IMG/VR virus record: IMGVR_UViG_3300045988_098456
From: a virus
Length of the DNA: 64,000 nucleotides
Direction: 5' to 3' (one strand)
Made by a program: the position numbers and the translations under genes. Shown here in pieces: positions 5,968 to 47,718 of the stretch. The stretch's first letter is position 1; the number at the start of each line of letters is the position of its first letter. A model generated the notes under the pieces. It saw nothing but the letters and a program-made list of their open reading frames with translations. It did not search any database and had not been told where the DNA came from.

Positions 5968-6743
5968 AAAAAGGAAGTGAAACAAAGATAATCAAGAGGT
6001 CTCAGATAAATCTGAACCCTTGTAATCCGAAGGTACATACCGATACAGACATCAAACAGCAGAAAGCTAACATAAAGAAAGTTGGTCTCATTGGTGGCAT
6101 TCAATGGAATGAGACAACAGGTAATCTTATAGACGGACATAAGCGAGTGATGAGTGTTGACCTTATCCAAGGTTATGATGGTACTCCAGAAACCGATTAT
6201 GACATCAAGGTAGAAGCCGTTGACTTTGACGAGAAGACCGAGAAAGAGCAATTGTTGTTTATGGCGAAATCGCAAGACCCGATAGATTACAACTTGGTTG
6301 CCAAGAACTTTAGCATAGATGAAATAGACTTCAAGGCTGCTGGCTTCACGGAACAGGATACTGAACAAATCAAGATGTTGCAAGATGATTTGGAAGCATC
6401 ATTGAAGGATTCGGGCATGGATGACTTTAGCGAGGATTTCTTGAATGAACCTATAACTTCAGTTAATACCCCAACGCCAATGACCGAATTACCAAACATA
6501 GAAAAATCATCTGAAGAGATTGTTGCCGAGCATGCCGCCAAACCAAAGATGACAAAGGAAGAGGTAAAAGAACAGAAGCAACATTGTACTGATGTCGGTA
6601 TGAAAAGACAGGAAGATATTGATAACTTCATTTTTATAGACTTTGAAAGCTTGGAACAGAAACAGCTGTTTTGTGATATGCTGCACATGGTAGCCACTAG
6701 CTCTATGCGTGTTTCCGGAAGTCAAGTCTTAGGCTTATTGTAA
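5964..6743 (+). CDS. ParB/sulfiredoxin-like N-terminal-domain protein (IbrB-like) with acidic C-terminal half
   Basis: KKVGLIGGIQWNETTGNLIDGHKRV. ATGA overlap with the upstream gene. Confidence 0.65.
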   Translation: MKKGSETKIIKRSQINLNPCNPKVHTDTDIKQQKANIKKVGLIGGIQWNETTGNLIDGHKRVMSVDLIQGYDGTPETDYDIKVEAVDFDEKTEKEQLLFMAKSQDPIDYNLVAKNFSIDEIDFKAAGFTEQDTEQIKMLQDDLEASLKDSGMDDFSEDFLNEPITSVNTPTPMTELPNIEKSSEEIVAEHAAKPKMTKEEVKEQKQHCTDVGMKRQEDIDNFIFIDFESLEQKQLFCDMLHMVATSSMRVSGSQVLGLL

Positions 6744-14074: not shown

Positions 14075-14881
14075 ATGACGAAACCAAGAGATTATTTCAC
14101 AGGCAAGCAAGAAGAGTTCAGACGCTCAGAAGTGCAGATAGCACCATATAATCCAAGGAAGATTTCACCGCAGCAGAAAGCTACATTGAAACGTTCCATA
14201 AGAAAATTTGGCGTTGTTGGTGGTATAACCGTCAATAAGCCAACAATGACCATCGTAGGCGGCAACCAAAAAGTAACCATCATGGATGAGATTATGGGCT
14301 ATCCCGAAAAGGATTATACTCTTTTGGCTGAGGCTGTAAATGTGGATTACAAGACCGAAGTTGAACTGAACTTCATGCTTAATTCCGAGAATGCTCATGG
14401 AGAATGGGATGACATGAAAGTCCGTGAATTACTGCCGGACATAAACTATATGGATGCCGGATTAACGGAAGAAGACCTGTCCCTGTTCGGCTATGATGCA
14501 ATGGTAAAGACTGAAGGCGAAGACGAGTTAGGCAAAGAACTCAATTCCTTACTAGACCCATTTGACAAAGAAATCGAAAGCAGAAAAGAACCAGTATCAA
14601 AGGATGAGCAAGAAGAGCAGAGACGACAGATAGAACAAAATCAAATTATATCCAATCAGCAGCAAGAGGCTCAATATCAAGCGAATAAAGAACGTATGCA
14701 ACAGGTAAAGAAAGAGGTAAATACCAAGGCAGCGGAAAAAGCTTTAGAAGCCGAGTCTTACGTCATGCTTTCTTTTGATAATATAGAGAACAAGGAACGT
14801 TTTATGAGCACCTTTGGCTTTATCGAAACCGACAAGGTAATCAAGGGAGAAATGCTTATGAAAGTAGCAAAACGAATATAA
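14075..14881 (+). CDS. ParB-like N-terminal-domain protein, copy 2 (degenerate motif), Gln/Glu-rich C-terminus
   Basis: SEVQIAPYNPRKISPQQKATLKRSIRKFGVVGGITVNKPTMTIVGGNQKV is parallel to the 5964..6743 N-terminus. Confidence 0.55.
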   Translation: MTKPRDYFTGKQEEFRRSEVQIAPYNPRKISPQQKATLKRSIRKFGVVGGITVNKPTMTIVGGNQKVTIMDEIMGYPEKDYTLLAEAVNVDYKTEVELNFMLNSENAHGEWDDMKVRELLPDINYMDAGLTEEDLSLFGYDAMVKTEGEDELGKELNSLLDPFDKEIESRKEPVSKDEQEEQRRQIEQNQIISNQQQEAQYQANKERMQQVKKEVNTKAAEKALEAESYVMLSFDNIENKERFMSTFGFIETDKVIKGEMLMKVAKRI

Positions 14882-15260: not shown

Positions 15261-15839
15261 ATGGCAAAACCGAAATTTGATTACAATGGCGATGCTTTCT
15301 ACGATGAGATAGAACAGCTTGCAAAGCAAGGTCAGAAGGATTCTGAAATTGCCTACGCCCTTGGTTTGAAGTTTGGGGTTGACCTAAATCCACAGGTCTT
15401 CAACCGAATGAAAAACGGAAAATACGAGAATTGGAATGAAGACGAAAATGTGGAAAGAGGAGAAAGGATAACTCAATCCCTCGTGCGTGGCAGAGAGTTT
15501 ATCAATGCAATCGTGCGTGGAAGATTCCTTAAATGCGCCCTTGGAGGTGTCAAGGTAAAAGGCAAGACAACCACCAAAAGACACATGGTTGTAGATGGAG
15601 TTATGACAGATGATATAGTAGTGGAAACTAGAGAAACCGAGCAGGAGACCCCACCTAACGTACAAGCTCTTTCTACTTGGTTATTCCATTACGATATGAC
15701 TTGGAGAGAGATACAGAGAGGTAAGAAGGATGAAGAGGAAAAGGGCATTCCTTTTGACCCTAAGAAAGGTATATCCGTCAACAAGTGGATAGAAAGAGAG
15801 ATTGAGCAGGAAGCAGAAGAGCAAGGGGAGGGTGAATAA
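15261..15839 (+). CDS. Terminase small subunit candidate
   Basis: The N-terminus is HTH-like (DSEIAYALGL). The stop overlaps the TerL start (ATAATG). Assigned mainly by position. Confidence 0.5.
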   Translation: MAKPKFDYNGDAFYDEIEQLAKQGQKDSEIAYALGLKFGVDLNPQVFNRMKNGKYENWNEDENVERGERITQSLVRGREFINAIVRGRFLKCALGGVKVKGKTTTKRHMVVDGVMTDDIVVETRETEQETPPNVQALSTWLFHYDMTWREIQRGKKDEEEKGIPFDPKKGISVNKWIEREIEQEAEEQGEGE

Positions 15840-18079
15840 TGGCAAAAACACATTCCGTTTATTATCCGTTATATAATGACAAGACGCATTTCATTTACCT
15901 TATAACGGGAAGCCGTGCGTCAGGAAAAAGTTTCTCAGCTTCTCAGTTTATCGAAAGACTTACTTTTGAATACAATGCAGAAAGAAAGATAGCGCATAAG
16001 ATTCTTTATACACGTTATACGATGGTAAGTGCCGCTATTTCCGTAATTCCAGAGGTTAAAGAGAAGATAGAGATTGATGGTACACAGGATTACTTTAAGA
16101 ATACTAAGACAGATATAGTCAACAAAATGACAGGAGCTGAAATCATGTTCCGTGGTATTCATACGGCTAGTGGTAATCAGACTGCGAAGTTAAAGTCAAT
16201 CCATGGTGTGACTACGTTTGTCGTTGATGAGGCTGAGGAATGGACGAGTGAGGAGGATTTTGAGCGCATCATGCTTTCAATCCGTCAGAAAGGCTTGCAC
16301 AACCGAGTAATAATCATTATGAACCCTTGTGATTCAAATCATTGGGTATATAAGCGTTTCATCGAAAAGACACATAAAGAGGTGTATTTTGATGGCGTTC
16401 CCGTCCAGATCAGTACAGACCCTAGAGTACTTCATATACATACGACCTATCTTGATAATATAAAGCATCTTTCACCTGAGTTCCTTAACGAGGTATTAGA
16501 GATGAAGGAGAATGAACCAGAGAAATATGCTCATATAATGATAGGTAGATGGTCTGATGTATCTGAGGGTGCAATATTCAAGCATGTAGGCATCGTTGAC
16601 AAGTTCCCTAGCAATGCAAGGAAAGTAGCCATCGGAGTAGACTGGGGATATTCGAAAGACTATACTGCTATTGTGAAGTGTGGTATCGTAGACAATCGCC
16701 TATACATAGAGGAACTTTGCTATAGAACGGAAATGTTGTCCAGTGATATTATAAAATTCTTGCGCCCTTATGCGGATGATGGCTTGTTTGTGTATGCGGA
16801 TAGTGCTGACCCTAGGCTTATAGATGAGGTAGCTCTTGGTGGAATAGTTATATATGGAGCACAAAAGGGTGCTGGTTCTATATTGGCTGGTATTGACAAG
16901 ATGCAGACATTCGAAATCTTTGCGACTAGACAATCAGTCCATTTACAGAGCGAGTTCCGCAAATATGTGTGGGCAAAGGACAAGGATGGCAATTATATCA
17001 ATGTTCCCGAAGACCATGATAATCATTGCTTTACCGCAGACACATTAATTTTAACGAATCAAGGATATAAGCAGATTAAGGATATAAACATAGGTGATAT
17101 TGTATATAATTCTGACGGATGGCATCGTGTAAGCAAGACCTTTGATAACGGCATTCAAGAGGTGTGGTCTGCCATTATCGAGCTTGGCGACAGAACAATA
17201 GAGATTAATTCAACACCAAGTCATAAATTCAAAACAAAGGAAGGATGGAAACAATTACAAGACTTGACAGAAAAGGACGTACTTTATATATTCAGAAATT
17301 CAACGGACGAGAATATGTTAAATACCCAAAAGAAATGTATTTTAAGAATGGAGCGACAACTACTTGGCTTCATCGAGCAGTGTGGGAATATTATAATGGA
17401 TGTATTCCGAAAGGCTATCATGTACATCACAAAAACGAAAATGTTTTTGACAATGAAATTGATAATCTTGAACTCCTTGAAGGGCATCAGCATCTTTGTA
17501 TGCACATGCAAGAGAAACTACAGGATGCAGAATATATTGAGAAATTGCAAAAGAACATGGATTACGCAAGAGGGTTTGCAAATAAATGGCATGGTTCAGA
17601 AGAAGGAAAGAGATGGCATAGGTTGCATGGAATTGAGGTCTCAAAAAATTTATCTACACAAGAATATAAGTGTCTGTTTTGTGGCAAAACATATCAAGCA
17701 AAGACTAGTGGCAACCATAAATTTTGTTCTAACGCTTGTAAAACAAGGTACAGATACCATTCTAAGGTGGATAATGAAGAAAGGACTTGTAAATATTGTG
17801 GGGCGAAATTCTCTGTTAACAAATACATCAAAAAAGAGTATTGCTCAAACAAATGTTATTGGGAAGATAGACGAGCAAAAAATAAAGAGAATAAAGATAG
17901 TTAGAAAATATAAAGATCATGTGTACAATATGGAGGTTGAAGGAGAGCATGAATATTTTGCTAACAACATATTGGTTTCAAATTGCATTGATGCTGCACG
18001 GTATTATATTCTTGCCGTATTGCTCGGTAAAGTGATGAAGCCAAGAAAAGCATCTAAATCAGACTTAGGAGTGTACTAA
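15839..18079 (+). CDS. terL: Terminase large subunit, interrupted by an intein (exteins 15839..17026 and 17984..18079)
   Basis: Walker A GSRASGKS, Walker B VVDEAEE. The nuclease motif is split by the insertion: EDHDNH|...|CIDAARYY. Confidence 0.9.
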   Translation: MAKTHSVYYPLYNDKTHFIYLITGSRASGKSFSASQFIERLTFEYNAERKIAHKILYTRYTMVSAAISVIPEVKEKIEIDGTQDYFKNTKTDIVNKMTGAEIMFRGIHTASGNQTAKLKSIHGVTTFVVDEAEEWTSEEDFERIMLSIRQKGLHNRVIIIMNPCDSNHWVYKRFIEKTHKEVYFDGVPVQISTDPRVLHIHTTYLDNIKHLSPEFLNEVLEMKENEPEKYAHIMIGRWSDVSEGAIFKHVGIVDKFPSNARKVAIGVDWGYSKDYTAIVKCGIVDNRLYIEELCYRTEMLSSDIIKFLRPYADDGLFVYADSADPRLIDEVALGGIVIYGAQKGAGSILAGIDKMQTFEIFATRQSVHLQSEFRKYVWAKDKDGNYINVPEDHDNHCFTADTLILTNQGYKQIKDINIGDIVYNSDGWHRVSKTFDNGIQEVWSAIIELGDRTIEINSTPSHKFKTKEGWKQLQDLTEKDVLYIFRNSTDENMLNTQKKCILRMERQLLGFIEQCGNIIMDVFRKAIMYITKTKMFLTMKLIILNSLKGISIFVCTCKRNYRMQNILRNCKRTWITQEGLQINGMVQKKERDGIGCMELRSQKIYLHKNISVCFVAKHIKQRLVATINFVLTLVKQGTDTILRWIMKKGLVNIVGRNSLLTNTSKKSIAQTNVIGKIDEQKIKRIKIVRKYKDHVYNMEVEGEHEYFANNILVSNCIDAARYYILAVLLGKVMKPRKASKSDLGVY
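17027..17983 (+). mobile_element. Intein (319 codons) in TerL
   Basis: Block A CFTADTLILT, block B TPSHKF, C-terminal VYNMEVEGEHEYFANNILVSN followed by Cys+1. Coordinates are in frame with terL. Confidence 0.8.
17245..17904 (+). CDS. HNH homing endonuclease encoded in an alternative frame inside the intein
   Basis: HRAVWEYYNGCIPKGYHVHHKNENVFDNEIDNLELLEGHQH, plus two CxxC..(Y/F)CSNxC zinc-ribbon repeats. Its frame differs from terL. Confidence 0.8.
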   Translation: METITRLDRKGRTLYIQKFNGREYVKYPKEMYFKNGATTTWLHRAVWEYYNGCIPKGYHVHHKNENVFDNEIDNLELLEGHQHLCMHMQEKLQDAEYIEKLQKNMDYARGFANKWHGSEEGKRWHRLHGIEVSKNLSTQEYKCLFCGKTYQAKTSGNHKFCSNACKTRYRYHSKVDNEERTCKYCGAKFSVNKYIKKEYCSNKCYWEDRRAKNKENKDS

Positions 18080-18296: not shown

Positions 18297-18304
18297 TACC
18301 TTTG
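18297..18304 (+). promoter_or_regulatory. -7 promoter box tacctttg
   Basis: TAnnTTTG. It lies over the annotated TTG start of the portal ORF, so the ATG at 18323 is preferred. Confidence 0.5.
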
Positions 18305-18322
18305 CTTCAAAAAGTTATAAGG

Positions 18323-19735
18323 ATGTTTGTAGATTCAATTATTCAGATAAAGACATATTTTCGAAACCTCACGCTCAATGCATTGGGTGTGGAGAGAAGC
18401 ATCTTCGAACGTTTGGAAGATAATGATGTTGATTCTGTCGTAAATATGATGGAACAACATGATTTCGATGTGGATAATGCCATTTCGGAATATAATCCAC
18501 AAACCCATAAGGTGATGAGCCGTGAAGATAAATGGGTAAAGGGAGAAAAGCCGTACAGGACGGAGAAGTTGGCAAGAACAAGACAAAGATACATAAATGA
18601 GGTAGAATTGTTCTTCTTGTTAGGCAATCCGATTATGTGGAAGAAGACTGAAGGTGACGATGAAGCCTTTGAACTATATAAAAAATACTTGAAGAATATA
18701 TACTTTAATACCAAGCTACGTCAATGCAAGCGACTTGCCGGAGCAGAAACCGAAAGCGGTTTTGTTTTTAATTTCTCGCAAAAAAACGGAAAAATGCATG
18801 TTGATGTGTATGTTGCAGCTCGCTCAAAGGGACATAAGATGAGAGAGTTGTTTGACCAGTACGGAAACATGCTTGCTTTTGCTGTAGGCTATTCCTTAAA
18901 GCGAGAGTCAAAGACTATCGAATGTTGGGATATATTGACATCCGTTTTTAACTATCATTGTGAACGTGGTGGCTTTGGGTGGAAAGTGTATAAGTATCCT
19001 AATCCGACAGGAAAGATTAACGGCATCTACTTTCGCCAACCTAAAGCATGGGATGGTGCAGAGCCAAGAATGGAACGTGAAGAAATGCTTGATTCCAAGA
19101 TTGGAGATGCTAACAACTACTTTGCTGACCCTATTGCCGCTGCTACTGCTGACGTGATACAATCAATCCCTAAGCGGAACAAGCCAGGTAAACTCATACA
19201 ACTTACAGGCAAGAACTCTAGGTTTGAATATATCAACCCACCTCAGAATTCCGAAATCCGCAAGGCAGAGAAAGAAGACTTGGCTCAGTCTATATTGTTT
19301 GATACGTTTACACCGGATATGTCACCGGAACTGATGAAAGCTATGAGTACGCTTACTAGTGTCGGCATAAAACGAGCGTTGGTATTGGGTTACATCAAGC
19401 GAGCGAACCGAATGGAAATCTATGAAGAACTTGTCGGTAGATTATCGCATGTGATTATAGCCGTAATGAAGGAACTATATCCTGAGATGAGAAGCAAGTT
19501 GGATAAGTTGGAGGTCGAATTCGAATTTGCCGAACCTTTCGAGGATGACAAAAAGGATAAGTGGAAAGTAATAGCGGAACTATATAATCAAGGCGTACTT
19601 TCTTTAGAGACTGCTGTACAAATGCTGGCTCTAACTGACGCTCCTGCTGAAGAAATTGAAAAGATACGCAAGGATGCAGAAGATAAAGTAGCGTTAGCTG
19701 CAAAGGTAAAGGGAAACGAAAATACAACTTCATAA
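18323..19735 (+). CDS. Portal protein (SPP1 Gp6-like)
   Basis: About 470 aa, immediately after terL. The overall pattern (NPQTHKVMSR..., C-terminal ELYNQGVLSLETAVQML) fits the Gp6 portal family by eye. Confidence 0.7.
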   Translation: MFVDSIIQIKTYFRNLTLNALGVERSIFERLEDNDVDSVVNMMEQHDFDVDNAISEYNPQTHKVMSREDKWVKGEKPYRTEKLARTRQRYINEVELFFLLGNPIMWKKTEGDDEAFELYKKYLKNIYFNTKLRQCKRLAGAETESGFVFNFSQKNGKMHVDVYVAARSKGHKMRELFDQYGNMLAFAVGYSLKRESKTIECWDILTSVFNYHCERGGFGWKVYKYPNPTGKINGIYFRQPKAWDGAEPRMEREEMLDSKIGDANNYFADPIAAATADVIQSIPKRNKPGKLIQLTGKNSRFEYINPPQNSEIRKAEKEDLAQSILFDTFTPDMSPELMKAMSTLTSVGIKRALVLGYIKRANRMEIYEELVGRLSHVIIAVMKELYPEMRSKLDKLEVEFEFAEPFEDDKKDKWKVIAELYNQGVLSLETAVQMLALTDAPAEEIEKIRKDAEDKVALAAKVKGNENTTS

Positions 19736-19865: not shown

Positions 19866-20351
19866 ATGAACACGAATGAACTTATCATAAACGGAAAAGA
19901 TGCTTGGACTACCTATCGGGTCAAGATGGGGTATGGCTTTTTGGATGCGTTGGAAGCTGACGCAGACAATAAAAGTTATATAACCAATGAAGTAAGGACT
20001 GAGCACGGAACTAGGGTTGTTCCTATCCGTCCTAAAAAGGCAGAAAGAAGCATTACCTTGGAGTTTGTTATTGTCGGCATAGACCATAGCGACTATAATA
20101 AAAGGATAAAAGCCTTTGATGCACTTATGGATAATGGTTTTGTTACGATACAAGTTCCTCGATCAAAGGATGATGTCTATCGTTTGTTTTGTGCGAGGAA
20201 GTCTCCTACCTATTCAAGAGGAAAAGGAGGGGCTATAGGCAAGAAGAGTTTGAAGTTCATAGAATATAATCCAACGAACAGGGGAGCTTTGACTGATGCG
20301 GATATTGATATGTTCACGTTGAAAGAATTTGAAGATATAGAACAGTTATGA
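19866..20351 (+). CDS. Distal-tail-protein (Dit)-like tail component
   Basis: 161 aa with an ATGA overlap to the large tail protein. Assigned by position and size. Confidence 0.4.
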   Translation: MNTNELIINGKDAWTTYRVKMGYGFLDALEADADNKSYITNEVRTEHGTRVVPIRPKKAERSITLEFVIVGIDHSDYNKRIKAFDALMDNGFVTIQVPRSKDDVYRLFCARKSPTYSRGKGGAIGKKSLKFIEYNPTNRGALTDADIDMFTLKEFEDIEQL

Positions 20352-23300
20352 AAACTTACAAGGATATTGATATAAAGTATTACGATAATGACGGAAACAT
20401 ACATGTAAGATGTTCTGTTCCCGTAACACAGGATGCATTGGTTCACTATGAATTAATGCAGTCTCACTATTGTAAGCTTTCCTTTAAGCTTTCTAAACCT
20501 ACATATTTCTTGCTTGGTGATTTTATAGATACACCATATGGACGATTTGAGCTAATAGATTTAACTAAGGCCAAAGATAATGATACTATTGGATATTCCT
20601 ATGAAATCCAATTTGATGCATATTATCGTAAGTTCAAGAACAAAATATTGAAGTATCGCCCGAATACAGGTTCACAAGAAGCGACTTTCTCTCTTACTTC
20701 AAAAATAAGCACCCATGTAGAGGTGATTATGAAAAGCCTAGCTTATTATGCGAAGTTAGACAAGTCTTATCTTTACGACCCTAAATTTGAAGGTGAAGGA
20801 ACGGACTATACTTATGTTATTGATGCGAGCGTAGACGCAAATGCGGCAAAGCTTATAACCTATTCAAACACAAGTATGTTGGATGCTATTGCAAATATAG
20901 CTCAGACGTTTGAATGTGAATGGTGGTTTGAAGGCAATATTCTACATTTCGGTACTTGCGAGAATACAAATGCGATTGTTGATTTCAGACTAAACGACAA
21001 CATCGTTTCTATGTCAAGTTCACAAAGCCAGTCCACTTATGCAAACAGAATATATGCTTTTGGAGCTGCAAGGAACTTGCCTAGTGGATATAAGAATGAT
21101 GCAGATGCGGACATAACAAAAGATGGTGTCGTAGAAAAACGTCTTATGCTTCCTACTTCAGCAGAATGCTCTGACAAAAACAAGCAATTGTTAGCAGAGA
21201 ATGGCTTTGAGCTGAAAAACGGATATATACAAGTCGGTGGACTCCATGAAGACCAGTATGTAGAGGGAGTAACAACAAATGATGATATTTATCCAAGAAA
21301 TCTTATCAAAACGTCTAATGTGACATCATACGAAAAAGATGTAGAGAATGAAAGTACACCCGAAGAGGGTGATTACATCAAACGAACTTTCTATCGTGTA
21401 AATTCGCTTACTATTGTCAATGATGATGGCGAAAAAACAGGTGATATGGCTTTCCGAAAGGCATATATTCTTAGTGGCAAGAACTTACATATAGTATTCC
21501 AAAGCGGTTCTCTTAATGGTATGGACTTCGAATGTGAGTTTAATCCAGATGGAGTTTCTGAAATACTTAAGGACGATGATGGTAATCCGATATTGAAAGA
21601 TGGAAAAGAACAGATAAATCCTAAGTCGCAGGTATTTGAGATTGTTGCTAATGAGGATTATGGTCGTTTTTTGCCGGACACAACTTTGCATCCAAAGGAC
21701 GGAGATACTTTTGTTCTCTATAATTGGGATTCTACCAAATTGGGTGACACATTGGTATCTGCTGCTTCCAATGAGTTGCTGACGGATTCTATTGAGAATT
21801 TGAAGAAGTCTATGATAGACCCTACGACATATACATGTACCGCTGAGGCTAATTATTCATTCAATCAAGGTCGTGGCAACTTGCATGGTGTAGGAGACAG
21901 GGTTAACCTTTACAATAAGGGTTATGAAGACAGCTATAGGTCTTCAAGAATTATCGGCTATGAGTTCTGTCTAGATATTCCTTATGATGGAGCAAAATAT
22001 TATGTTGGAGAAAAACCTTCATATTCACGGCTCAATGCAATGGAGTCTAAAATTGAGGAACTTGTCTATAACGGACAGAGTTATCTTAATAGCAATGGTG
22101 GTGGAGGAAAATCAATTTACGTCATAAAGAGCTATGATAAGACTGCACCTACTGATTATAATGTTTATTCCGCTAAGGCTATTGATGAGCAAAGATTACA
22201 TAAAACGAAAGACGATACCGCACAAGGTACTATTACATTTGAGGTGCTACAAAGATTCCTACAAGGATTTCGTCTTGGTCACACCAATGCCTACAGCATT
22301 GATGGAAACGGAAACGTAACCATTAACTTGCTCAACTCTGCTGATTATGATGATGCAACTCAGTCGGGTTTTGGCTTCTACAGACGTAAGGATGGGAAAA
22401 TTGGTCTGAACGTCACAGACATCAGTGTTTGGGGCAAGGCATACTTCAACAACTTGACGATTCGTGAGACCACCTTCGTAGGTGGTAATCTCGTTTTCTC
22501 ACCTTCTGCTGGTAAGATATTCGAGGTAAGAGAGATTTATAACGACACAAATGAACTGACTGGTTGGAAGTGCTACCTGTTAGCAGACGATGGTACAACC
22601 GCTACAACGAATATGTTTGAGGTTGATGACCAAGTGCGCTGTGAGACGTTCAACATCAAGGCTGGCGTATATGAGAATGTTTCGAATAAGTTCTATTGGC
22701 GTAAGATTACTGATGTGTCTAAGGATAATGAAGAGATAAGGGATGCAAACAACAATATCCTCTATGATGGTAAGAAATACTCATGGATAGTTATCTCTGC
22801 AAGTGATAAGGCAGAAGGTAGTGATAACCCTGCTGCTGGAGACACTATTGTTCTCATGGGTAACAGAACGAACACAAACCGAATGAGCTTCGTGGTTAAA
22901 GAAACCTATGGTGACAACGCTCCTCGGGAAGTTGGTTACACTAACGTACACAGCTATACACTCGGCAATGGTAATCTTGTTTACGAGATAAGCCCTAAGA
23001 AGGTGCGGTTCTATTCTCAGTACTTCGAAATAGTAACCATTGAGGGTTTATCTATTAAGACTATCAACTATCGTGGCGATTGGAAACAAGGCGATACCTA
23101 CGTGTACTACGACCAAGTGACGCACAACGGAACGACTTGGCTCTGTGTTGCACCCGAAGGAACAAATGTAACGAGTGAGCCAGCAAGGGGTAATGATTTC
23201 TGGAAGGCTCAGAATGCAATACTTGATGCTACACTCAATATCACTCAGAGCACAGGAGAATGGATAGATAAGGGCGAGACAAATCATGTAGAATGTTCCG

Positions 23301-23545
23301 TAATACGTGGTTTTGAGAATATTACAGACCAAGTAACATCGTGGAACATCGTGCGTGATAGTGGTGATGCTGTCAATGATGCGGCTTGGCAGAATAAAGA
23401 TAAGGTCAAGAACTTTGATGGAACGATAGATATAGCGTGGACGGACGATGAAGATGACATCGGTGATTCCAATAGCTGTATATTCACCATCACTGCTTTT
23501 TGGGGTAATAAAGTTGAACTAGCAAAAGGAACAATAAGCGTATGA
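20348..23545 (+). CDS. Large tail-tip / baseplate hub protein (Tal-like phage minor structural protein)
   Basis: 1065 aa. The N-terminal approx 250 aa resemble the prophage-tail/minor-structural N-terminal region (...MLDAIANIAQTFECEWWFEGNILHF...). Confidence 0.6.
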   Translation: MKTYKDIDIKYYDNDGNIHVRCSVPVTQDALVHYELMQSHYCKLSFKLSKPTYFLLGDFIDTPYGRFELIDLTKAKDNDTIGYSYEIQFDAYYRKFKNKILKYRPNTGSQEATFSLTSKISTHVEVIMKSLAYYAKLDKSYLYDPKFEGEGTDYTYVIDASVDANAAKLITYSNTSMLDAIANIAQTFECEWWFEGNILHFGTCENTNAIVDFRLNDNIVSMSSSQSQSTYANRIYAFGAARNLPSGYKNDADADITKDGVVEKRLMLPTSAECSDKNKQLLAENGFELKNGYIQVGGLHEDQYVEGVTTNDDIYPRNLIKTSNVTSYEKDVENESTPEEGDYIKRTFYRVNSLTIVNDDGEKTGDMAFRKAYILSGKNLHIVFQSGSLNGMDFECEFNPDGVSEILKDDDGNPILKDGKEQINPKSQVFEIVANEDYGRFLPDTTLHPKDGDTFVLYNWDSTKLGDTLVSAASNELLTDSIENLKKSMIDPTTYTCTAEANYSFNQGRGNLHGVGDRVNLYNKGYEDSYRSSRIIGYEFCLDIPYDGAKYYVGEKPSYSRLNAMESKIEELVYNGQSYLNSNGGGGKSIYVIKSYDKTAPTDYNVYSAKAIDEQRLHKTKDDTAQGTITFEVLQRFLQGFRLGHTNAYSIDGNGNVTINLLNSADYDDATQSGFGFYRRKDGKIGLNVTDISVWGKAYFNNLTIRETTFVGGNLVFSPSAGKIFEVREIYNDTNELTGWKCYLLADDGTTATTNMFEVDDQVRCETFNIKAGVYENVSNKFYWRKITDVSKDNEEIRDANNNILYDGKKYSWIVISASDKAEGSDNPAAGDTIVLMGNRTNTNRMSFVVKETYGDNAPREVGYTNVHSYTLGNGNLVYEISPKKVRFYSQYFEIVTIEGLSIKTINYRGDWKQGDTYVYYDQVTHNGTTWLCVAPEGTNVTSEPARGNDFWKAQNAILDATLNITQSTGEWIDKGETNHVECSVIRGFENITDQVTSWNIVRDSGDAVNDAAWQNKDKVKNFDGTIDIAWTDDEDDIGDSNSCIFTITAFWGNKVELAKGTISV

Positions 23546-26012: not shown

Positions 26013-27281
26013 ATGAAAAATCTTGCAACAGTAGCAGCGGTATCATCAATGGTTAAGAATGATACTTTATTGATAGAGGTTGGTGGTTCGCTCAGACGTA
26101 TCAAGCTGTCCGACTTGGCTAAGTCTATTCAGACTAACCAACTTGACCTCTCGCTTATAGCGTGGGGTACTTACCTTAAAGAAACAAGTGATACGCAATG
26201 GGGAGTCTGCGGAAACCAGACGAAGTGGAATGAGTTCAAATCTTCGCTCGGTCGATACTTGCTCACTAACGATGGAAGAATGGCTAAATTATCTCGCAGC
26301 AACTCTTCTGTATTCGAGGATGGTACAACCGTTGATGAGAGCAAAGGTCATATTATGTTCCATACCCCTCATCGTCTTTACTATCTTGTGAAGTACGATG
26401 CGTCAGCAGGATGCAATATTCTGTGGGGTTCTACTTATCCTATCTCTGAGCATTATATCGACCATCCTACCTTTGGCGCATATATGGGTAGTATTGTTAG
26501 CAATAAGCTTGTAAGCCGTAGTGGACTTGGTGTATCGAATAATATATCAATCAGTGATTTCTTTACTTATGCCCATAATAACGGAAAGAATTTCGGTCTG
26601 CTCGACTATGAGACATTGAAGATTATTCCTATGCTCGTTTTGTGGGAAAGCGGAAACAGCAACTCACAGGCTAAGTTTGGTTGTGGTCCTACTGGTAGTA
26701 CCAATACATGGGATAAGGTTAATGGTCTTACAACGGGTGCGACAAAGAGCCTTGGAGATAACAATGGTAAAATCAGCTTGGCAGCATTGACAGGAAACGC
26801 TGACGCATGCTATGTGAACTTCTTCGGTATCGAGAACCCTTGGGGATGGTACTGGCATATGATACAAGGCATCTACTTCGGTAATAGCGGTAATAGCGGT
26901 CAGACTGGTTCAGAAGCATTTGTATACAAAGGCAACAGAATGCCTTCTGCTTCCGAGCTTACAGGTCATCCTGTCGGAGATTATCGCACATTCACACGAA
27001 ATATAAATAGTGGATGGGTATTGAGCCTTGTCCTTGGAGACTTCTTCGACATCATGCCAAAAAATGTTGGTGGTGATAATAGCGCAAACTACTATTGTGA
27101 CTACTCATGGGCAAGCAGCACTGGGCAGTTGCTCCTCTTTGGTGGTGACGCCTGGGATGCGCTTCGCTGCGGCTCGTTCTACGTCCATTCGAATTACGAC
27201 TTCGGCCATCGCGGTGCGAGCTACGGTGTGCGTCTCGCTTTTTACGGAAATCCGACATACGTAAACGGCGCAGACCTGTAG
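26013..27281 (+). CDS. DGR target: receptor-binding tail fibre protein with a C-type-lectin/FGE-like variable C-terminus
   Basis: FGIENPWGWYWHMIQG...NYYCDYSW...LLLFGGDAWDALRCGSFYVHSNYDFGHRGASYGVRLAFYG. VR occupies the last approx 38 codons. Confidence 0.8.
   Translation: MKNLATVAAVSSMVKNDTLLIEVGGSLRRIKLSDLAKSIQTNQLDLSLIAWGTYLKETSDTQWGVCGNQTKWNEFKSSLGRYLLTNDGRMAKLSRSNSSVFEDGTTVDESKGHIMFHTPHRLYYLVKYDASAGCNILWGSTYPISEHYIDHPTFGAYMGSIVSNKLVSRSGLGVSNNISISDFFTYAHNNGKNFGLLDYETLKIIPMLVLWESGNSNSQAKFGCGPTGSTNTWDKVNGLTTGATKSLGDNNGKISLAALTGNADACYVNFFGIENPWGWYWHMIQGIYFGNSGNSGQTGSEAFVYKGNRMPSASELTGHPVGDYRTFTRNINSGWVLSLVLGDFFDIMPKNVGGDNSANYYCDYSWASSTGQLLLFGGDAWDALRCGSFYVHSNYDFGHRGASYGVRLAFYGNPTYVNGADL
27129..27243 (+). 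repeat. DGR variable repeat (VR)
   Basis: 115-nt match to 27370..27484 with 14 mismatches, all opposite A in the TR. Confidence 0.9.
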
Positions 27282-27290
27282 GGTCTGCGC
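27268..27290 (+). promoter_or_regulatory. GC hairpin directly after VR (DGR homing-associated hairpin type)
   Basis: gcgcagacc/ggtctgcgc with loop tgtag. The stop codon lies in the loop. A second hairpin gtggagc/gctccac is at 27299..27314. Confidence 0.6.
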
Positions 27291-27369
27291 TACCCGATGT
27301 GGAGCTTGCTCCACCGACGCAAAAATGGTGATAAGAAAAAATATAAAATAAAAGGTGGCGAGAGACATT

Positions 27370-27484
27370 TTGCTCCTCTTTGGTGGTAACGCCAGGAATG
27401 CGCTTAACTGCGGCTCGTTCTACGTCAATTCGAATAACGACTTCGGCAATCGCAATACGAACTACGGTGTGCGTCTCACTTATT
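27370..27484 (+). repeat. DGR template repeat (TR)
   Basis: Non-coding copy of VR. It is rich in AAC/AAT triplets in the VR reading frame. Confidence 0.9.
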
Positions 27485-27709
27485 TATAATCGCTGAATCA
27501 ATAATCTGTCGTGTATGGATATATGAAGAAGTGAGTCTCTCAAACCTTGACGTGGGCTTTTAGCCTAGTCAGAAAATAACAGCGGAAAGGCTCTCTGTAT
27601 TCGCTGAATGGAGAGCAAGCGTGGTGAAGTAATCGGCTCAGTTGTACGAGCAGAACAAAGTCACGGGCAAAGCGGCAAAAAAGCAATAGGCTTTAAATTA
27701 TAAAACACA

Positions 27710-29191
27710 ATGACAGCAAAGGTAAAGAATCTGATGAACGAACTCGTAAAGAGGGAAACATTGGAGCAAGGCGGTGATGATGCCTACAATGCGTTAGATG
27801 ATAAGAATACGTGGTTTGCAAGGAGATATATCCGAGATAAGGACAATATTATCGACTGCATACAGAATATGCTCATCCTCGGCATTTATCCTAAGAAGGA
27901 ATATAAAGAGGTTGATATAGTATCAGAGAATAAGGCAAGAAAGATATGCCCTATGCACTTCGACCCTTGGAACGTTCTATTCCATGCCATAAAGATAGTG
28001 CTAGAACCTATAGTAGAGCGAGTGCTCATATATGATTCAAGTGCTGGCAGAAAAGGCAAAGGTCAGGTATTCGGAGCATTGAGAACCCAACGGGCTATCA
28101 GAAGGCATCCGAAATGGGCTTATTATGGGAAAGGAGACCTCAGAAAGTACTATCTGACAATACCTCATCCTGTTCTGCTTATGATACTCAGACGATATGT
28201 AGACGATGATTTGTTCATCGAGCTTATAGATAAGACTATGTTGGACTATTCTGTAGATATAGAACCTCTGATGCTTGAAGAATATGAGCGCAAGAAGAAG
28301 TACTGCATTTGGGCAGACAAAAGTGAAATAAAGTATCTCGGGTGTAAGCGTGGTGTAACGCTCGGTAATCCTATCGGTCAGATGTTAGGTAATCTTGCTT
28401 TAAGTCTTGTAGACTATGCTATGGTTCATATCGAGCATGCTAAAGGTTATCATCGGCATTGTGACGATATTACCTTCTTCGCTGAAACAAAGGAAGAAGC
28501 TGTTCGGTTGCTTGGAAGATTGGACTACTGGTGTAACCAATATGGTCTCTGTCTGAAGGCGAGCGGTCATGTAGCAGAACTGCATAACGAAGAGACAGGT
28601 GTAAAAGGAAGATGCTTAGACTTTGTAGGTTATGTATATTCTCGCAAGAACATGAGGATGCGCAGACGTACAAAGGTTAAGGCTGCAAAGGCTTTCGGTA
28701 GAGTTAAGAGCCGTAAAAGGCGGCAGGAACTTATCGGAGCTTATTGGGGAATAGCAAGATGGGGAAAGTGTAAGCATCTTTGGAAGAAGATTGTCGGAGA
28801 TTACCCAGAAAATTATAAACAAGAATTTAAAAGGAAAAAGAACATGAGTTTCAAGGATATAGGAATCGTATCACCGAAATACTCGGTCGATAAAAACGGA
28901 AAACGTATATTTTCCGTACAGGAATACAATCAAGCTCTTCTCTGTCAGAATCACACCATCATCAACATATTAGACTTTGAAGATGATGTAGAGGTTAATG
29001 GCAAGGGCGGTCGATGCTGGGTTCTGTACGAAATGAAAGATAGCCCAGGAACAGAGTATAAGTTCTGCACTTCATCAAAACTCATAAGGCAGAAACTTAT
29101 TGAAGTAAGGGAGAAGAATCTTCTGCCAGTCAATGACACTTTCCTGTTCAGAGTAGACAAAGGTGGCAGATATACTTATGATTTAGATTAA
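27710..29191 (+). CDS. DGR-type reverse transcriptase with a C-terminal extension
   Basis: FHAIKIVLEPIVERV, SSAGRKGKGQVFGA, GDLRKYYLTIPH, GVTLGNPIGQMLGNLAL, YHRHCDDITFFA. About 130 additional C-terminal residues have no recognised motif. Confidence 0.85.
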   Translation: MTAKVKNLMNELVKRETLEQGGDDAYNALDDKNTWFARRYIRDKDNIIDCIQNMLILGIYPKKEYKEVDIVSENKARKICPMHFDPWNVLFHAIKIVLEPIVERVLIYDSSAGRKGKGQVFGALRTQRAIRRHPKWAYYGKGDLRKYYLTIPHPVLLMILRRYVDDDLFIELIDKTMLDYSVDIEPLMLEEYERKKKYCIWADKSEIKYLGCKRGVTLGNPIGQMLGNLALSLVDYAMVHIEHAKGYHRHCDDITFFAETKEEAVRLLGRLDYWCNQYGLCLKASGHVAELHNEETGVKGRCLDFVGYVYSRKNMRMRRRTKVKAAKAFGRVKSRKRRQELIGAYWGIARWGKCKHLWKKIVGDYPENYKQEFKRKKNMSFKDIGIVSPKYSVDKNGKRIFSVQEYNQALLCQNHTIINILDFEDDVEVNGKGGRCWVLYEMKDSPGTEYKFCTSSKLIRQKLIEVREKNLLPVNDTFLFRVDKGGRYTYDLD

Positions 29192-29211: not shown

Positions 29212-29637
29212 ATGAAGATACAATGCACAATGGCAGTATTGCCAAAGGATAATGTGAAGGTTTATGTTTCGGGTAACTACCTTCAAGTAGCTTATGATTT
29301 TGTTCGTATTGAGCAGAAAGAAGAAGATGAGAGTGATAGTATGCACATGGTGGTAGAGAACTCTTGCCAAGGCGAATACATCGAGCTTCGTGGAGGCATC
29401 CGCAGCTATGATGCAATAGCGTCAGCCATCATCGAAGACAAATACCCATCTGACAAGATGGATGCCATTCGTCTTAACTTTGAGTTGGCTCAGAACAGTG
29501 ATGTGGCATCTATTTCCTTGGATGACAGCAAGCGTAAGGAGTATATTGCAGAGTATAAGGCGATGCAAGAGTGGCGCATTCACGCCAAGGATATAGCTCG
29601 AAAGGCTGTTGACTTAATTAACAAGGAATTGAAATAA
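29212..29637 (+). CDS. Hypothetical protein downstream of the RT
   Basis: 141 aa and acidic, unlike basic four-helix Avd proteins. Confidence 0.45.
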   Translation: MKIQCTMAVLPKDNVKVYVSGNYLQVAYDFVRIEQKEEDESDSMHMVVENSCQGEYIELRGGIRSYDAIASAIIEDKYPSDKMDAIRLNFELAQNSDVASISLDDSKRKEYIAEYKAMQEWRIHAKDIARKAVDLINKELK

Positions 29638-43142: not shown

Positions 43143-43496
43143 ATGAAAGAGTTAGGTTTTGATAAGCTATACGTAAAGTTTAGCAATTTATATTGTGAGT
43201 ATCGTAGTAGAAAGCAATTCTTGAAGTGGTTGAAATCCGCAAAGAATCTTTCTGAAGATTTGTTTGAAGTAACGCCAAGTGGAGGTGGTTCGTTTTATGT
43301 TGTGTTGTCTTTTGAAGAGATAAAGGATTTATTTCCGATTATGGAAAACTCATTGCCTAAGTATGAAAACGATATAAAGCAAGTTTTGTTGGCCATAAAG
43401 GAAATGGGACAGCTTGAAGTTGCAAAGATATGGCATGAGGATGATTGGGGTGACGGCTTTGTAGAGGATTTTTGTAAAACCCATGATATTTCATGA
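43143..43496 (+). CDS. Hypothetical protein
   Basis: 117 aa. ATGA overlap with dcm. Confidence 0.45.
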   Translation: MKELGFDKLYVKFSNLYCEYRSRKQFLKWLKSAKNLSEDLFEVTPSGGGSFYVVLSFEEIKDLFPIMENSLPKYENDIKQVLLAIKEMGQLEVAKIWHEDDWGDGFVEDFCKTHDIS

Positions 43497-44542
43497 AGAT
43501 ACAGACATTTGAACTATGTGCCGGATATGATTCTCAACTGATGGCTTTGGAACGACTGAAGAAGAAACATTCTGATTTCGATTACGAGTGCATCGGATGG
43601 TCTGAGATAGAGCCAAGCGCAATAACCTTGCATAACGCTTGTTTTCCTAGTCTGTCCGGTAAGAACTTTGGTGATATGACCAAGATAGATTGGAGCAAGG
43701 TTGCTGATTTTGACTTGCTGACATATTCAACACCTTGCCAGTCTGTTTCGCAAGCTGGAAAGCAGGAAGGAATAGAGGAGGGAAGTAACACCCGTTCTTC
43801 TATCCTTTGGTTCACAAGAAACGCCATTATTACCAAGAGACCGAAATACCTATTGATGGAGAATGTTGAGGCTTTGGTTCAAACAAAGTTCATTGGGTTC
43901 TTTAATAAGTGGCGCAAGGAATTAGAATCCTACGGATATGTTAACTATGCTAAGGTGGTAAATGCAGCCGACTGCGGTGTTCCTCAGAACAGAAAGCGTG
44001 TCTTCATGCTCTCTATACGAAATGATGGTGATAAGATAGATTATCATTTTCCGAGAAAGACAAAGCTGAAGAAACATTTGGTAGATGTCTTGGAGGAAAA
44101 TGTGGACGAAAAGTACTTTATGAGCGATGCTCTGCTATGTAAAGAGAAATTTGTGTCAAATGAATGGAAAGAGCCTATGAGTGCAGCTATAAGAACTCGT
44201 TCTGAAGGGAAGTGGATAAAAGGCGAAAAGCATAGTCCAAATGTCGAGCTTGGAAAGAATATAGCCAATACCATTACATCTGCGAGCAAGGACTCCTTGG
44301 TTGTGCTTGGAGAGACAAGGTTGTGCATTAGGCGTTTGACTCCGAGAGAACTCTTCCGTTTGATGGACGTTGACGAAGAATACATAGACAAGATGCTTGA
44401 AAGTGGAGTGTCGAAGTCAAGTCTTCAAAAGGCTGCTGGAAATTCGATTGTTGTAGCTTGCATGGAGAGGATATTGGAGGAACTTTGGTTTTCTGAGAGT
44501 AATGTTAAGGTCGCTGATGATGGTCAGCTATGCTTATTTTAA
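43493..44542 (+). CDS. dcm: DNA cytosine-5 methyltransferase
   Basis: Motif I FELCAGYDS, motif IV STPCQSVSQAGK, ENV, QNRKRVF, GNSIVV. Confidence 0.9.
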   Translation: MKIQTFELCAGYDSQLMALERLKKKHSDFDYECIGWSEIEPSAITLHNACFPSLSGKNFGDMTKIDWSKVADFDLLTYSTPCQSVSQAGKQEGIEEGSNTRSSILWFTRNAIITKRPKYLLMENVEALVQTKFIGFFNKWRKELESYGYVNYAKVVNAADCGVPQNRKRVFMLSIRNDGDKIDYHFPRKTKLKKHLVDVLEENVDEKYFMSDALLCKEKFVSNEWKEPMSAAIRTRSEGKWIKGEKHSPNVELGKNIANTITSASKDSLVVLGETRLCIRRLTPRELFRLMDVDEEYIDKMLESGVSKSSLQKAAGNSIVVACMERILEELWFSESNVKVADDGQLCLF

Positions 44543-46470: not shown

Positions 46471-47718
46471 ATGATTTACGTAAGGAGCAAGGATGGTAAG
46501 GCATTGATGCCAAGCGAGCGTGGAGGGAGGATAGGCTATCTTCTTCGCCACGGCAAGGCTCATGTAGTCAGCCGTGTTCCGTTTGTCGTTCAGTTGGATT
46601 ATGAGAGCACCACCTATACGCAGGAAGTGAGCCTTGGCATTGATGCTGGTTCAAAGCATATTGGCGTTTCAGCTAGTTCCGAGAAGAAGGAGCTGCTTGC
46701 AGCGCAGGTTGAGTTAAGAATTGATGTTGTGAACTTGCTATCTACTCGCAGGGAGTTGAGACGAACAAGGCGAAACCGCAAGACACGTTATCGCAAGTCT
46801 CGTTTTGACAATCGAAAGCGAAAGGATGGTTGGCTAGCACCCAGTGTTGAACAAAAGATTGAGAGTCACTTGAAGGTTATCCGCTTGGTTCATAAGTTAC
46901 TTCCAATTACGAAGACCACAATCGAGGTTGCTCAGTTTGATGCTCAGAAAATCAAGAATCCAGACATCAATGGTGAGGAGTATCAGCAGGGTGAACAAAT
47001 GGGATTTTGGAACGTGAGGGAGTACGTCTTGGCTAGGGATGGGAACAAGTGTGTTCATTGCAAGGGTAAGAGTAAAGACCCAATCTTGAATGTTCACCAC
47101 TTGGAGAGCCGGAAGACAGGTGGCAATTCCCCTAGTAATCTCGTTACTCTATGTGAGACTTGTCACAAGGCTTACCATCGTGGGGAGTTCGAGTTGAAAA
47201 TCAAGCGTAGAAATTCCTTGCGTGATGCAGCCGTTATGAATATTATGCGTTGGGCGGTCTATGAGCGAGCGAAGGAAGAATTTGAGAACGTTCACTTGAC
47301 TTATGGTTATGTAACCAAGCATACTCGCATAGAGAATGGTATTGCCAAGACCCATGCAGCCGATGCTTTCTGTATTGCTAAGAATATTAACGCAATGAGG
47401 TTGAGTACTTTCTTTATGTGCCGTTGTGTTCCTAGCCATACGAGAAGGTTGCACGTTGCCAACCCTAAGAAGGGCGGCATCCGCAGAAGCACGATAGCCT
47501 CTCATAAGATAGGTAAGTCCCGCTTTCAGCGTTTCGACATGGTGCGTTGGAAGGGTAAGGAATGCTTTATCTTTGGCAGCACGCATGGTAATGTTGTTTT
47601 GCGTAAAATTAATGGCGTAAAGGTGCATGAAACGCAAGCTGTGAGTGCCAAAACGATAAAGTTTTTAAAAAGAATTAGAAATAACATTTTAGTGGAAGTA
47701 AGGGCTTCCGAAAATTGA
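46471..47718 (+). CDS. iscB: IscB RNA-guided nuclease (OMEGA system; RuvC plus HNH)
   Basis: PLMP motif (KALMPS), RuvC-I LGIDAGSKHIGVS, Arg-rich bridge helix RRELRRTRRNRKTRYRKSRF, RuvC-II IEVAQFD, HNH CVHCKG...NVHHLESR...LVTLCETCHKAYH, RuvC-III THAADAF. Confidence 0.85.
   Translation: MIYVRSKDGKALMPSERGGRIGYLLRHGKAHVVSRVPFVVQLDYESTTYTQEVSLGIDAGSKHIGVSASSEKKELLAAQVELRIDVVNLLSTRRELRRTRRNRKTRYRKSRFDNRKRKDGWLAPSVEQKIESHLKVIRLVHKLLPITKTTIEVAQFDAQKIKNPDINGEEYQQGEQMGFWNVREYVLARDGNKCVHCKGKSKDPILNVHHLESRKTGGNSPSNLVTLCETCHKAYHRGEFELKIKRRNSLRDAAVMNIMRWAVYERAKEEFENVHLTYGYVTKHTRIENGIAKTHAADAFCIAKNINAMRLSTFFMCRCVPSHTRRLHVANPKKGGIRRSTIASHKIGKSRFQRFDMVRWKGKECFIFGSTHGNVVLRKINGVKVHETQAVSAKTIKFLKRIRNNILVEVRASEN

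Follow-up and report, generated by a model that had tools for sequence, protein, structure and literature searches.

The stretch of viral DNA examined here, 64,000 nucleotides (nt) of IMG/VR record IMGVR_UViG_3300045988_098456 and referred to below as the window, carries a cassette with the layout of a diversity-generating retroelement (DGR), in which a target gene ending in a variable repeat (VR) is followed by a template repeat (TR), a spacer (Sp) and the gene of a reverse transcriptase (RT). On the evidence set out below, the cassette is very probably a functional DGR of the accessory-less target-VR/TR/RT architecture, lying among the structural genes of a temperate gut phage with Prevotellaceae-borne relatives. 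Its principal features are the following (ORF, open reading frame; aa, amino acids).

26013..27281, + strand: ORF of the DGR target, 422 aa, a putative receptor-binding tail protein with a C-type-lectin-like variable domain at its C-terminus
27129..27243, + strand: VR, encoding residues 373-411 of the 422-aa target
27147-27223, + strand: diversified tract of the VR, with 23 TR-adenine positions in 14 codons
27224..27243, + strand: 3' end of the VR, consisting of the invariant G/C-rich CGGTGTGCGTCTC (27224-27236) and then the edge of homology
27370..27484, + strand: TR; of its 25 adenines, 23 lie in the mutagenic tract 27388-27464
27355-27489, + strand: GTG-initiated ORF of 44 aa lying over the TR, in the VR reading frame
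27485..27709, + strand: Sp, from the TR to the RT gene, a conserved structured RNA
27710-29191, + strand: RT ORF, 493 aa

The repeat pair and its variation among related phages

The limits of the target gene and the identity of the next ORF as the RT, both proposed in a first-pass annotation made from the letters alone, agree with the coordinates obtained here. When the VR and TR are compared base by base at a fixed offset of 241, 14 of the 115 aligned positions differ (27147, 27153, 27156, 27165, 27166, 27186, 27195, 27207, 27213, 27214, 27216, 27220, 27237 and 27241), and at all 14 the TR base is an A, replaced in the VR by G (8), T (3) or C (3). The other 11 of the 25 TR adenines are unchanged, no non-A position differs and every mismatch occupies codon position 1 or 2 of the target frame; the central claims of the first-pass annotation, that each VR/TR difference lies at a TR adenine and that the variable adenines fall in the first two codon positions, were thus reproduced count for count. 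The probability that 14 random mismatch positions should all land on 25 adenines out of 115 is 1.25e-11. Since the TR pattern with every A changed to N matches these two copies alone within the 64-kb window, with zero matches expected, the window harbors a single VR and a single TR. The 23 mutable adenines are distributed over 14 codons (nine AAY, one AGG, two TAC, one GAC and one ACG), which provides a coding capacity of 7e13 DNA variants and about 3e13 protein variants, and from which a stop codon is unreachable. The TR had also been described as non-coding, and this very probably stands, even if a mechanical 44-aa ORF overlies it; this ORF is present because the TR copies coding sequence, and it is almost certainly not a gene, though a gene caller could annotate one.

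The variation of the repeats was analyzed in 16 IMG/VR loci whose target is 77-96% identical to that of the window, together with contig MT835773.1; mismatches were counted in the 15 loci that hold both repeats, the window included, and 17 VRs were available, all differences being those between assembled genomes (consensus sequences) rather than within-sample reads. Across the 15 loci, VR and TR differ at 240 positions in total, of which 238 are TR adenines and 2 are other bases, with a replacement spectrum, after selection, of 137 A>G, 63 A>T and 38 A>C. Twelve of the 15 loci have the same TR, while no two of the 17 VRs are alike; each of the 23 adenines at TR offsets 18-94 is polymorphic among the VRs, and the non-A columns are essentially invariant. 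Moreover, substitutions private to one TR are found again in the VR of that locus (L011, G>T at offset 76; L012, T>A at offset 35; L015, five sites), which is the footprint expected of information transfer from TR to VR. A search of a phage collection returned one match only, the unannotated human-faecal contig MT835773.1, which is 95% identical over the gene body, ends before the TR and has a VR differing from that of the window at other TR-A positions. Given that related phages, with flanking DNA 91-97% identical and identical TRs, carry 17 different VRs, diversification appears to proceed faster than ordinary divergence. The expectation expressed in the first-pass annotation, of an invariant TR beside a VR polymorphic only at TR-A positions, is hence borne out in an approximate form, using 15-17 related assembled genomes in place of population reads (238 mismatches against 2). 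In the wider RT family, all 46 loci share the target-VR-TR-Sp-RT layout with A-only mismatches. Judging from these comparisons, the DGR was active in the recent past of the phage group.

The same set of VRs bears on the 3' boundary of the repeat. Beyond CGGTGTGCGTCTC, the VR reads GCTTTTT and the TR reads ACTTATT; position 27241 is T in all 17 VRs while the TR keeps A, and 27237 is G in 15 of the 17 and A in the other 2. Because of this uniformity, 27241 and perhaps 27237 do not behave as free sites, and the last one or two of the 14 mismatches are probably fixed edge-of-homology or selected differences and not the product of free mutagenesis. By analogy with the IMH/IMH* (initiation of mutagenic homing) elements of phage BPP-1, the VR 3' segment might be described as IMH-like.

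A separate observation concerns one TR of the family. In L041:2195-2320 (IMGVR_UViG_3300045988_101601), the 3' half of the TR has lost most of its adenines with respect to the sister TRs (L039:2194, L042:2194), through the changes AA>TC, AA>TG, AA>GC and A>T, and the VR of this locus now differs at non-A positions. It looks as if the TR had been overwritten by mutagenised complementary DNA (cDNA) or by VR-to-TR conversion, an event that would corrupt the template.

The target protein and the reverse transcriptase

The target matches the PHROG family phrog_5302, labeled 'tail protein' (E 2.5e-41), and has 391 homologues of about 430 aa, but searches of Pfam, NCBIfam and PDB sequences returned no family match, so that only fold comparison is informative. 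In the AlphaFold model of the protein (predicted local distance difference test, pLDDT, 90.4; predicted TM-score, pTM, 0.90), the best Foldseek match in the PDB is the DGR variable protein TaqVP (5vf4; E 2e-8, probability 1.0), followed by five Mtd variants (1yu0-1yu4; E 0.016-0.09), TvpA (2y3c) and the formylglycine-generating enzyme FGE (6xtp). The first-pass annotation had proposed that the VR-bearing C-terminus fits the C-type-lectin/FGE fold, and the structure prediction, with these four proteins as its top matches, supports a C-type-lectin fold for the C-terminus of the modeled target.

The same annotation placed the variable region at the tip of a tail fibre. Part of this holds, in that the PHROG label, the position of the gene and the fit of the predicted fold all point towards a tail protein, which may well be receptor-binding; the tip itself is a conjecture. 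A DGR that is functional but diversifies some other virion protein, or a surface protein expressed in lysogeny and acting, for instance, on the host cell or on other ligands, would account for the absence of a Pfam or NCBIfam family, for a 'tail protein' label that derives from one PHROG, for whole-chain TM-scores to TaqVP and Mtd of only 0.2-0.47, and for the fact that the scan recognised neither tail tube nor sheath nor baseplate genes nearby. We consider such a target unlikely, if well within the range of the plausible. The modest TM-scores arise because the N-terminal parts of the proteins differ; Mtd, the paradigm of phage receptor binding, is among the top structural matches; and the gene lies in a late structural block in the order terminase, portal, a 1065-aa protein, two further structural proteins (one of which also has a 'tail protein' PHROG match) and then the DGR. 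In addition, receptor-binding tail proteins are the main targets of phage DGRs, according to PMC10743442. A receptor-binding tail protein hence remains the preferred identity of the target.

The RT ORF is best described in two parts, of which the second is considered in the next section.

27710..28840, + strand: RT proper, residues 1-377, comprising an N-terminal extension, fingers/palm with the motifs LGNPIGQ and HCDD, thumb and basic linker

This protein gives a weak RVT_1 match (30.8 bits) and a strong match to phrog_1423 (E 5e-46) over residues 3-371. Its best PDB match is 8ub7_A, with E 1.8e-7 for the single sequence and E 7.8e-22 for a family profile built from 13 family members, the latter alignment including the N-terminal extension of the solved enzyme. 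We identified 8ub7_A as the Bordetella DGR RT (bRT), as its 328 aa, its YMDD at 213-216 and D138 match the published active-site residues. With the same profile, the next solved RT scores 3e-9 and the retron-type, DRT2 and group II RTs about 5e-7, leaving the bRT match 13 orders of magnitude above any other solved RT. The equivalents of bRT K72, R74, D138, I181 and Q187 are conserved in the family; in particular, R74 and I181, which promote adenine mutagenesis, correspond to R77 (invariant) and L218. The motif B consensus of the family, IGxxISQ, also fits the [I/V/L]GxxxSQ signature of DGR RTs, as opposed to the QGxxxSP of group II and retroviral RTs (PMC7826257).

These results also dispose of the proposal that the cassette is not a DGR at all, the VR and TR being an ordinary duplication and the RT deriving from a group II intron, a retron or a DRT/Abi defence system. 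Weak, sub-threshold matches of the RT to group II, DRT and retron models could be cited in its favor, yet no curated group II, retron or DRT cut-off was reached by the RT, the group II model being missed widely (50.5 against 300 bits), and neither intron RNA nor retron noncoding RNA (ncRNA) was detected. The adenine specificity, at a probability of order 1e-11 in the window and with 238 of 240 mismatches at A across the relatives, together with the affinity for bRT, has already refuted this proposal with the present data; a retron or group II affiliation, which the first-pass annotation had named as contrary evidence, was sought by profile search and the nearest solved relative proved to be a DGR enzyme.

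RNA elements, the C-terminal domain and the activity of the cassette

Two hairpins follow the VR, and a set of helices surrounds the TR and fills much of the spacer.

27268..27290, + strand: GC-rich 9-bp inverted repeat GCGCAGACC-TGTAG-GGTCTGCGC, 24 nt after the VR, with 7 G/C pairs
27299..27314, + strand: second hairpin, GTGGAG-CTTG-CTCCAC, after the target gene
27353..27366, + strand: P1 5' strand, the TR 5' flank, AGGTGGCGAGAGAC (RNA AGGUGGCGAGAGAC), just upstream of the TR
27535-27547, + strand: P1 3' strand, GUCUCUCAAACCU, in a spacer block 50 nt after the TR
27548-27571, + strand: hairpin P2, directly after the P1 3' strand
27572-27590, + strand: conserved spacer block GAAAATAACAGCGGAAAGG
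27590-27616, + strand: hairpin P3, after GCGGAAAGG
27620-27624 with 27661-27665, + strand: long-range helix P4
27633-27654, + strand: hairpin P5, judged by eye only

The existence of a GC hairpin behind the VR, noted in the first-pass annotation, was confirmed, and its stem turned out to be conserved by compensatory changes. The target stop codon (27279-27281) lies in the 5-nt loop and the 5' arm is coding (...GADL). The stem covaries (GGGCAAACC/GGTTTGCCC in L018, GCTGACCT/AGGTCAGC in L038, GCTGACTT/AAGTCAGC in L042 and GCTGACC/GGTCAGC in L046), so that pairing is kept through different sequences in at least five lineages, with the stop codon in or beside the loop. DGR target hairpins have been reported to lie 4-34 bp after the VR and to combine a stem of 7-10 bp with a GRNA loop of 4 nt (Guo et al. 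2011, PMC3240598), and in BPP-1 the stem's structure is needed but not its sequence, whereas the loop is sequence-critical (PMC3240598). In stem length, G/C content and distance (24 nt) the element fits this type, and by analogy it is a candidate DGR target-recognition hairpin or cruciform. The second hairpin likewise has a conserved loop (CTTG) and a covarying stem (GCGGAG/CTCCGC in L036, GGAGGG/CCCTCC in L038 and L040). As no T-run follows, it is not a canonical intrinsic terminator, and it possibly forms the 3' end of the target mRNA or serves there as a terminator element; a scan for sigma-70 promoters and intrinsic terminators around the cassette gave nothing informative.

Alignments show that the spacer is conserved in blocks across lineages with only 42-60% RT identity, and it has no Rfam match. 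In P1, 99.3% of cells are paired in 13 distinct sequence variants, as compared to 20-54% in slid controls, and in its inner 7-bp helix six of the seven pairs are changed on both sides, with no shuffle reaching the observed covariation score. The inner-helix variants comprise GAGAGAC/GUCUCUC, GAGGGAC/GUCCCUC, ACGAAAC/GUUUCGU, GGAAAAC/GUUUUCC, GGGGAAC/GUUCCCC and GGAUUCC/GGAGUCC. The P1 arms were taken as the best-pairing candidate between fixed anchors, a procedure with a slight bias towards pairing, and the anchors place P1 0-6 nt before the TR with two exceptions, both of them loci with incomplete automatic TR detection. For P2, P3 and P4, the arms of which were defined purely by sequence anchors, 94.9% of cells are paired against 20-43% in slid controls, and 8 of 13 pairs are compensatory. 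When the spacer was aligned with plain MAFFT, RNAalifold recovered almost no structure, as the variable hairpins are misaligned there.

In BPP-1, an avd:Sp duplex and a structured Sp position cis-priming and stop polymerisation (bioRxiv 10.1101/2023.10.23.563531). The P1-bracketed TR and multi-helix spacer described here parallel that duplex and, by analogy, might be functionally equivalent to it. A pairing between the TR 3' end and the spacer, suggested by RNAfold in L038 and L046 and by RNAalifold with GGGC, was considered and rejected as a conserved feature, since such pairings, for which AAGUGAG:CUCACUU is the candidate in the window, are without covariation across lineages; a cis-priming site in Sp, sought by way of these TR-3':Sp pairings, was not identified.

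The accessory gene avd is present in about 74% of DGRs, other accessory genes being HRDC, MSL and CH1. There is no room for avd inside the cassette of the window, the VR-TR gap being 126 nt and the TR-RT gap 225 nt, and the only ORF between target and RT is the artefact overlapping the TR. The same avd-less arrangement is found in all 46 loci of the RT family. Two downstream features are of interest in this respect.

28841..29191, + strand: RT-fused C-terminal domain, 116 aa (residues 378-493), a candidate accessory module
29212..29637, + strand: acidic ORF of 141 aa (ORF141), pI 5.0, directly after the RT

The C-terminal domain is conserved across the RT family and appears to be separable. 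In one sister lineage, that of P0013 and P0016, the RT stops before it, and in the locus of P0013 (L018) it is encoded by a separate 115-aa ORF that overlaps the RT stop (40% identity, E 8e-26). Among 1.8e9 representative sequences it forms a small family of 15 matches, in both free (108-128 aa) and fused (480-523 aa) forms; in L065 the stand-alone ORF follows a broken RT, so at least one free copy is untrustworthy. The domain is also present on other viral RTs in BFVD, including UniProt A0A8S5RML5 (97% identical). Its AlphaFold model (pLDDT 83) has the order beta1-beta2-beta3-alpha-beta4-beta5, a predicted topology reminiscent of the OB fold; a PDB fold search gave no significant match, the best being non-significant OB-like proteins, and Pfam, NCBIfam and PADLOC gave none. 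Two other identities were considered and discarded. Avd, which belongs to the 23S rRNA intervening-sequence protein family, is basic and folds as a four-helix bundle, whereas the domain is predicted to be mostly beta with one helix and has a pI of 6.8. The phmmer matches of the domain to the giant repeat proteins P0176, P0177 and P0181 are sums of weak repeats; of the three, P0176 was inspected and proved to be a protein of tandem repeats with no relation to RTs.

As a tentative proposal, which we regard as possible rather than probable, mutagenic retrohoming might take place here without Avd, with the 116-aa beta-rich domain replacing it functionally by binding the P1-bracketed TR-Sp RNA and licensing the RT. 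If true, the domain would represent a second, structurally unrelated class of DGR accessory factor, in a compact system of one protein and one RNA.

ORF141 has no family match in Pfam, PHROG, NCBIfam or PADLOC scans. Its homologues directly follow the RT or the C-domain ORF in L018 (43% identity), L021 (35%) and L065, and its place there may reflect an association with the DGR or plain synteny of a phage gene; an unrelated acidic ORF of 160 aa occupies the same position in the distant locus L020. The CH1 accessory proteins (160-169 aa), as described by Wu et al. 2018, are likewise small and acidic. Locus L020 (1-5576, 5411-5811) itself lies in a prophage beside bacterial genes and encodes a distant RT of the family (434 aa, 27-28% identity, with the C-domain). 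What is diversified there is not a 430-aa tail protein but the terminal part of a giant one exceeding 2200 aa, which indicates that one RT/RNA module serves different targets.

Several observations weigh against the reading of the cassette as a functional DGR of a tail protein. No avd, HRDC or MSL gene was found in or near it, the flanking ORFs and ten small ORFs within ~12 kb giving no Avd/PF05635, HRDC or MutS match in a scan confined to those ORFs, and bRT shows no activity when Avd is missing (bioRxiv 10.1101/2023.10.23.563531); the completeness of the DGR asserted in the first-pass annotation must consequently be understood as that of an accessory-less target-TR-RT architecture. Of the DGR-type RT motifs asserted there, the motif B signature fits the family consensus, but the RT of the window and its closest clade have LGNPIGQ (28361-28381) in place of [ILV]GxxxSQ, with S replaced by G and the L, G and Q kept, and motif C is HCDD (28451-28462) instead of YxDD across the whole family. 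The loop of the target hairpin, TGTAG, is of 5 nt and does not fit the 4-nt GRNA consensus, and L021, L024 and L056 are without a perfect stem of at least 6 bp at the hairpin site. Finally, retrohoming activity is deduced from differences between related assembled genomes, and the tail or receptor-binding role of the target from PHROG label, synteny and predicted fold only.

Some of these points could be taken to mean that the cassette is a relic, its VR diversified in the past and its machinery now inactive in this phage through impairment of the HCDD/LGNPIGQ RT or loss of Avd. The variant catalytic and signature motifs, the lack of Avd and a comparison that covers assembled consensus sequences instead of within-population reads would all be congruent with decay, and decay is known in the family, as illustrated by the adenine-depleted TR of L041 and the broken RT of L065. 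However, 46 loci, all with diversified VRs, have HCDD and the Avd-less layout in common; 17 different VRs occur among phages 91-97% identical in their flanks and with identical TRs; and in the window nothing is broken in the RT ORF, the TR adenines, P1-P4 or the hairpin. A relic is therefore improbable in our judgment, and a functional DGR continues to be the favored reading. The first-pass description of the DGR as clean and apparently active has accordingly worn well, the A-only pattern, the population signature, the bRT affinity and the lectin fold having all held.

With a functional DGR as the starting point, a scheme for its operation can be postulated. A transcript would run from just upstream of the TR through the spacer, and the TR 5' flank would pair with the spacer (P1) beside a multi-helix spacer RNA. 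The RT would copy the TR into cDNA, misincorporating opposite the 23 template adenines, and the cDNA would then replace the VR, the recipient being marked by the invariant G/C-rich VR 3' end and by the GC-rich hairpin 24 nt downstream. The outcome would be a lectin-fold tail protein in up to ~3e13 variants, differing at 14 residues of its ligand-binding face and presumably retargeting the phage to variable host surface receptors. In this scheme we infer the priming mode, the role of the hairpin, that of the RT C-domain (possibly standing in for Avd) and receptor binding.

Phage context and comparison with known systems

Beyond the cassette, the window contains the following genes and features.

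1-48: tRNA 3' fragment
292-1491: integrase
2057-3316: transposase
5964-6743 and 14075-14881: two paralogues of phrog_9353, with weaker ParB-like and DNA-methyltransferase matches
15839-18079: large terminase
18302-19735: portal
20348-23545, + strand: 1065-aa protein (phrog_17422), between the portal and the tail-like genes
43493-44542 and 50116-50820: further methyltransferases
46471-47718: HNH endonuclease

The window is derived from a temperate phage or prophage of the human gut, and its start is probably a prophage end at a tRNA attachment site. Around the 1065-aa protein, the scanned ORFs of the structural block included none recognised as a major capsid or tail-tube gene. Related loci adjoin integrases and bacterial genes, and a genome scan based on the RT alignment (13 sequences) places RT relatives in an uncultured Prevotellaceae metagenome-assembled genome and in Prevotella sp. 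UBA2756; the host is probably a Prevotella.

As a DGR, the cassette adds little to what is on record, since gut-phage DGRs are abundant, with thousands catalogued, and UniProt already has an entry 97% identical to the RT. The cassette is of value as a clean, well-populated example of the Avd-less class, the mechanism of which is unstudied, with parts that lend themselves to testing: an RT whose C-terminal domain is separable, an RNA (P1-P4) that is defined by covariation and brackets the TR, and a covarying target hairpin. The first two of these make an Avd-independent mechanism experimentally approachable and, if a single polypeptide and an RNA suffice, they would offer a more compact chassis for DGR-based targeted mutagenesis than bRT plus Avd.

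Comparison with the DGR of BPP-1 (mtd-VR/avd/TR/Sp/brt) reveals numerous similarities and some relevant differences. Both systems are phage-borne and diversify the C-terminal C-type-lectin domain of a tail protein, with a TR of about 115-135 nt, 23 mutable adenines and mostly AAY codons. Both have a G/C-rich invariant VR 3' end, a GC-rich hairpin after the VR around the target stop codon, and a structured spacer RNA between TR and RT with a duplex between the region upstream of the TR and the spacer, and bRT is the closest solved RT. On the other hand, BPP-1 has avd, whereas the cassette of the window has a short non-coding flank upstream of the TR instead. The RT of the window is of 493 aa against 328 aa for bRT and has in addition the 116-aa C-terminal domain and a ~40-aa insertion (relative to its most distant members, the RT family has an insertion of this size before motif B); where bRT reads YMDD and IGSLTSQ, it has HCDD and LGNPIGQ; the loop of the hairpin is TGTAG (5 nt) against GAAA; and the host belongs to the Bacteroidota and not to the Proteobacteria. 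With respect to the target, TaqVP (5vf4), Mtd (1yu0) and TvpA (2y3c) are the best fold matches and share a VR at the C-terminus and an enrichment in AAY codons, but sequence identity is only 10-15%, with no sequence-level family match, and the N-terminal two-thirds of the target differs from all three alike.

Closer in habitat are the hankyphage (PMC6199706), the B. uniformis siphophages (PMC8143477) and the DGRs of Bacteroides integrative conjugative elements and pili, which have in common with the window human-gut Bacteroidales, lectin-fold variable proteins and A-specific VR diversity in metagenomes; no sequence similarity to the hankyphage or the B. uniformis siphophages was seen in the phage collection search. 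An Avd-like protein is encoded by each of the five Bacteroides DGRs that have been studied by experiment, and Msl as well by some (bioRxiv 10.1101/2024.11.15.621889), and the cassette of the window, with neither, is unlike them.

Another counterpart is found in the survey of Wu et al. 2018 (PMC5758913). According to it, 29% of curated DGRs are without an accessory gene (Architecture A), the Avd-less Lineage 3 includes a sub-lineage, 3A, present only in Bacteroides and relatives, and a C-terminal extension of up to ~150 aa, devoid of motifs, occurs in about 20% of DGR RTs. The first-pass annotation had stated that DGRs are a known class of system, and the survey bears this out further, the Avd-less class and C-terminal RT extensions having both been catalogued already. 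Compared by description, the cassette resembles Architecture A1 and Lineage 3/3A of PMC5758913 in its target-TR-RT order, its lack of an accessory gene and the presence of relatives of its RT in Prevotellaceae genomes. The passages on these groups include neither an extension encoded as a separable ORF nor a P1-structured spacer RNA, and both are seen here.

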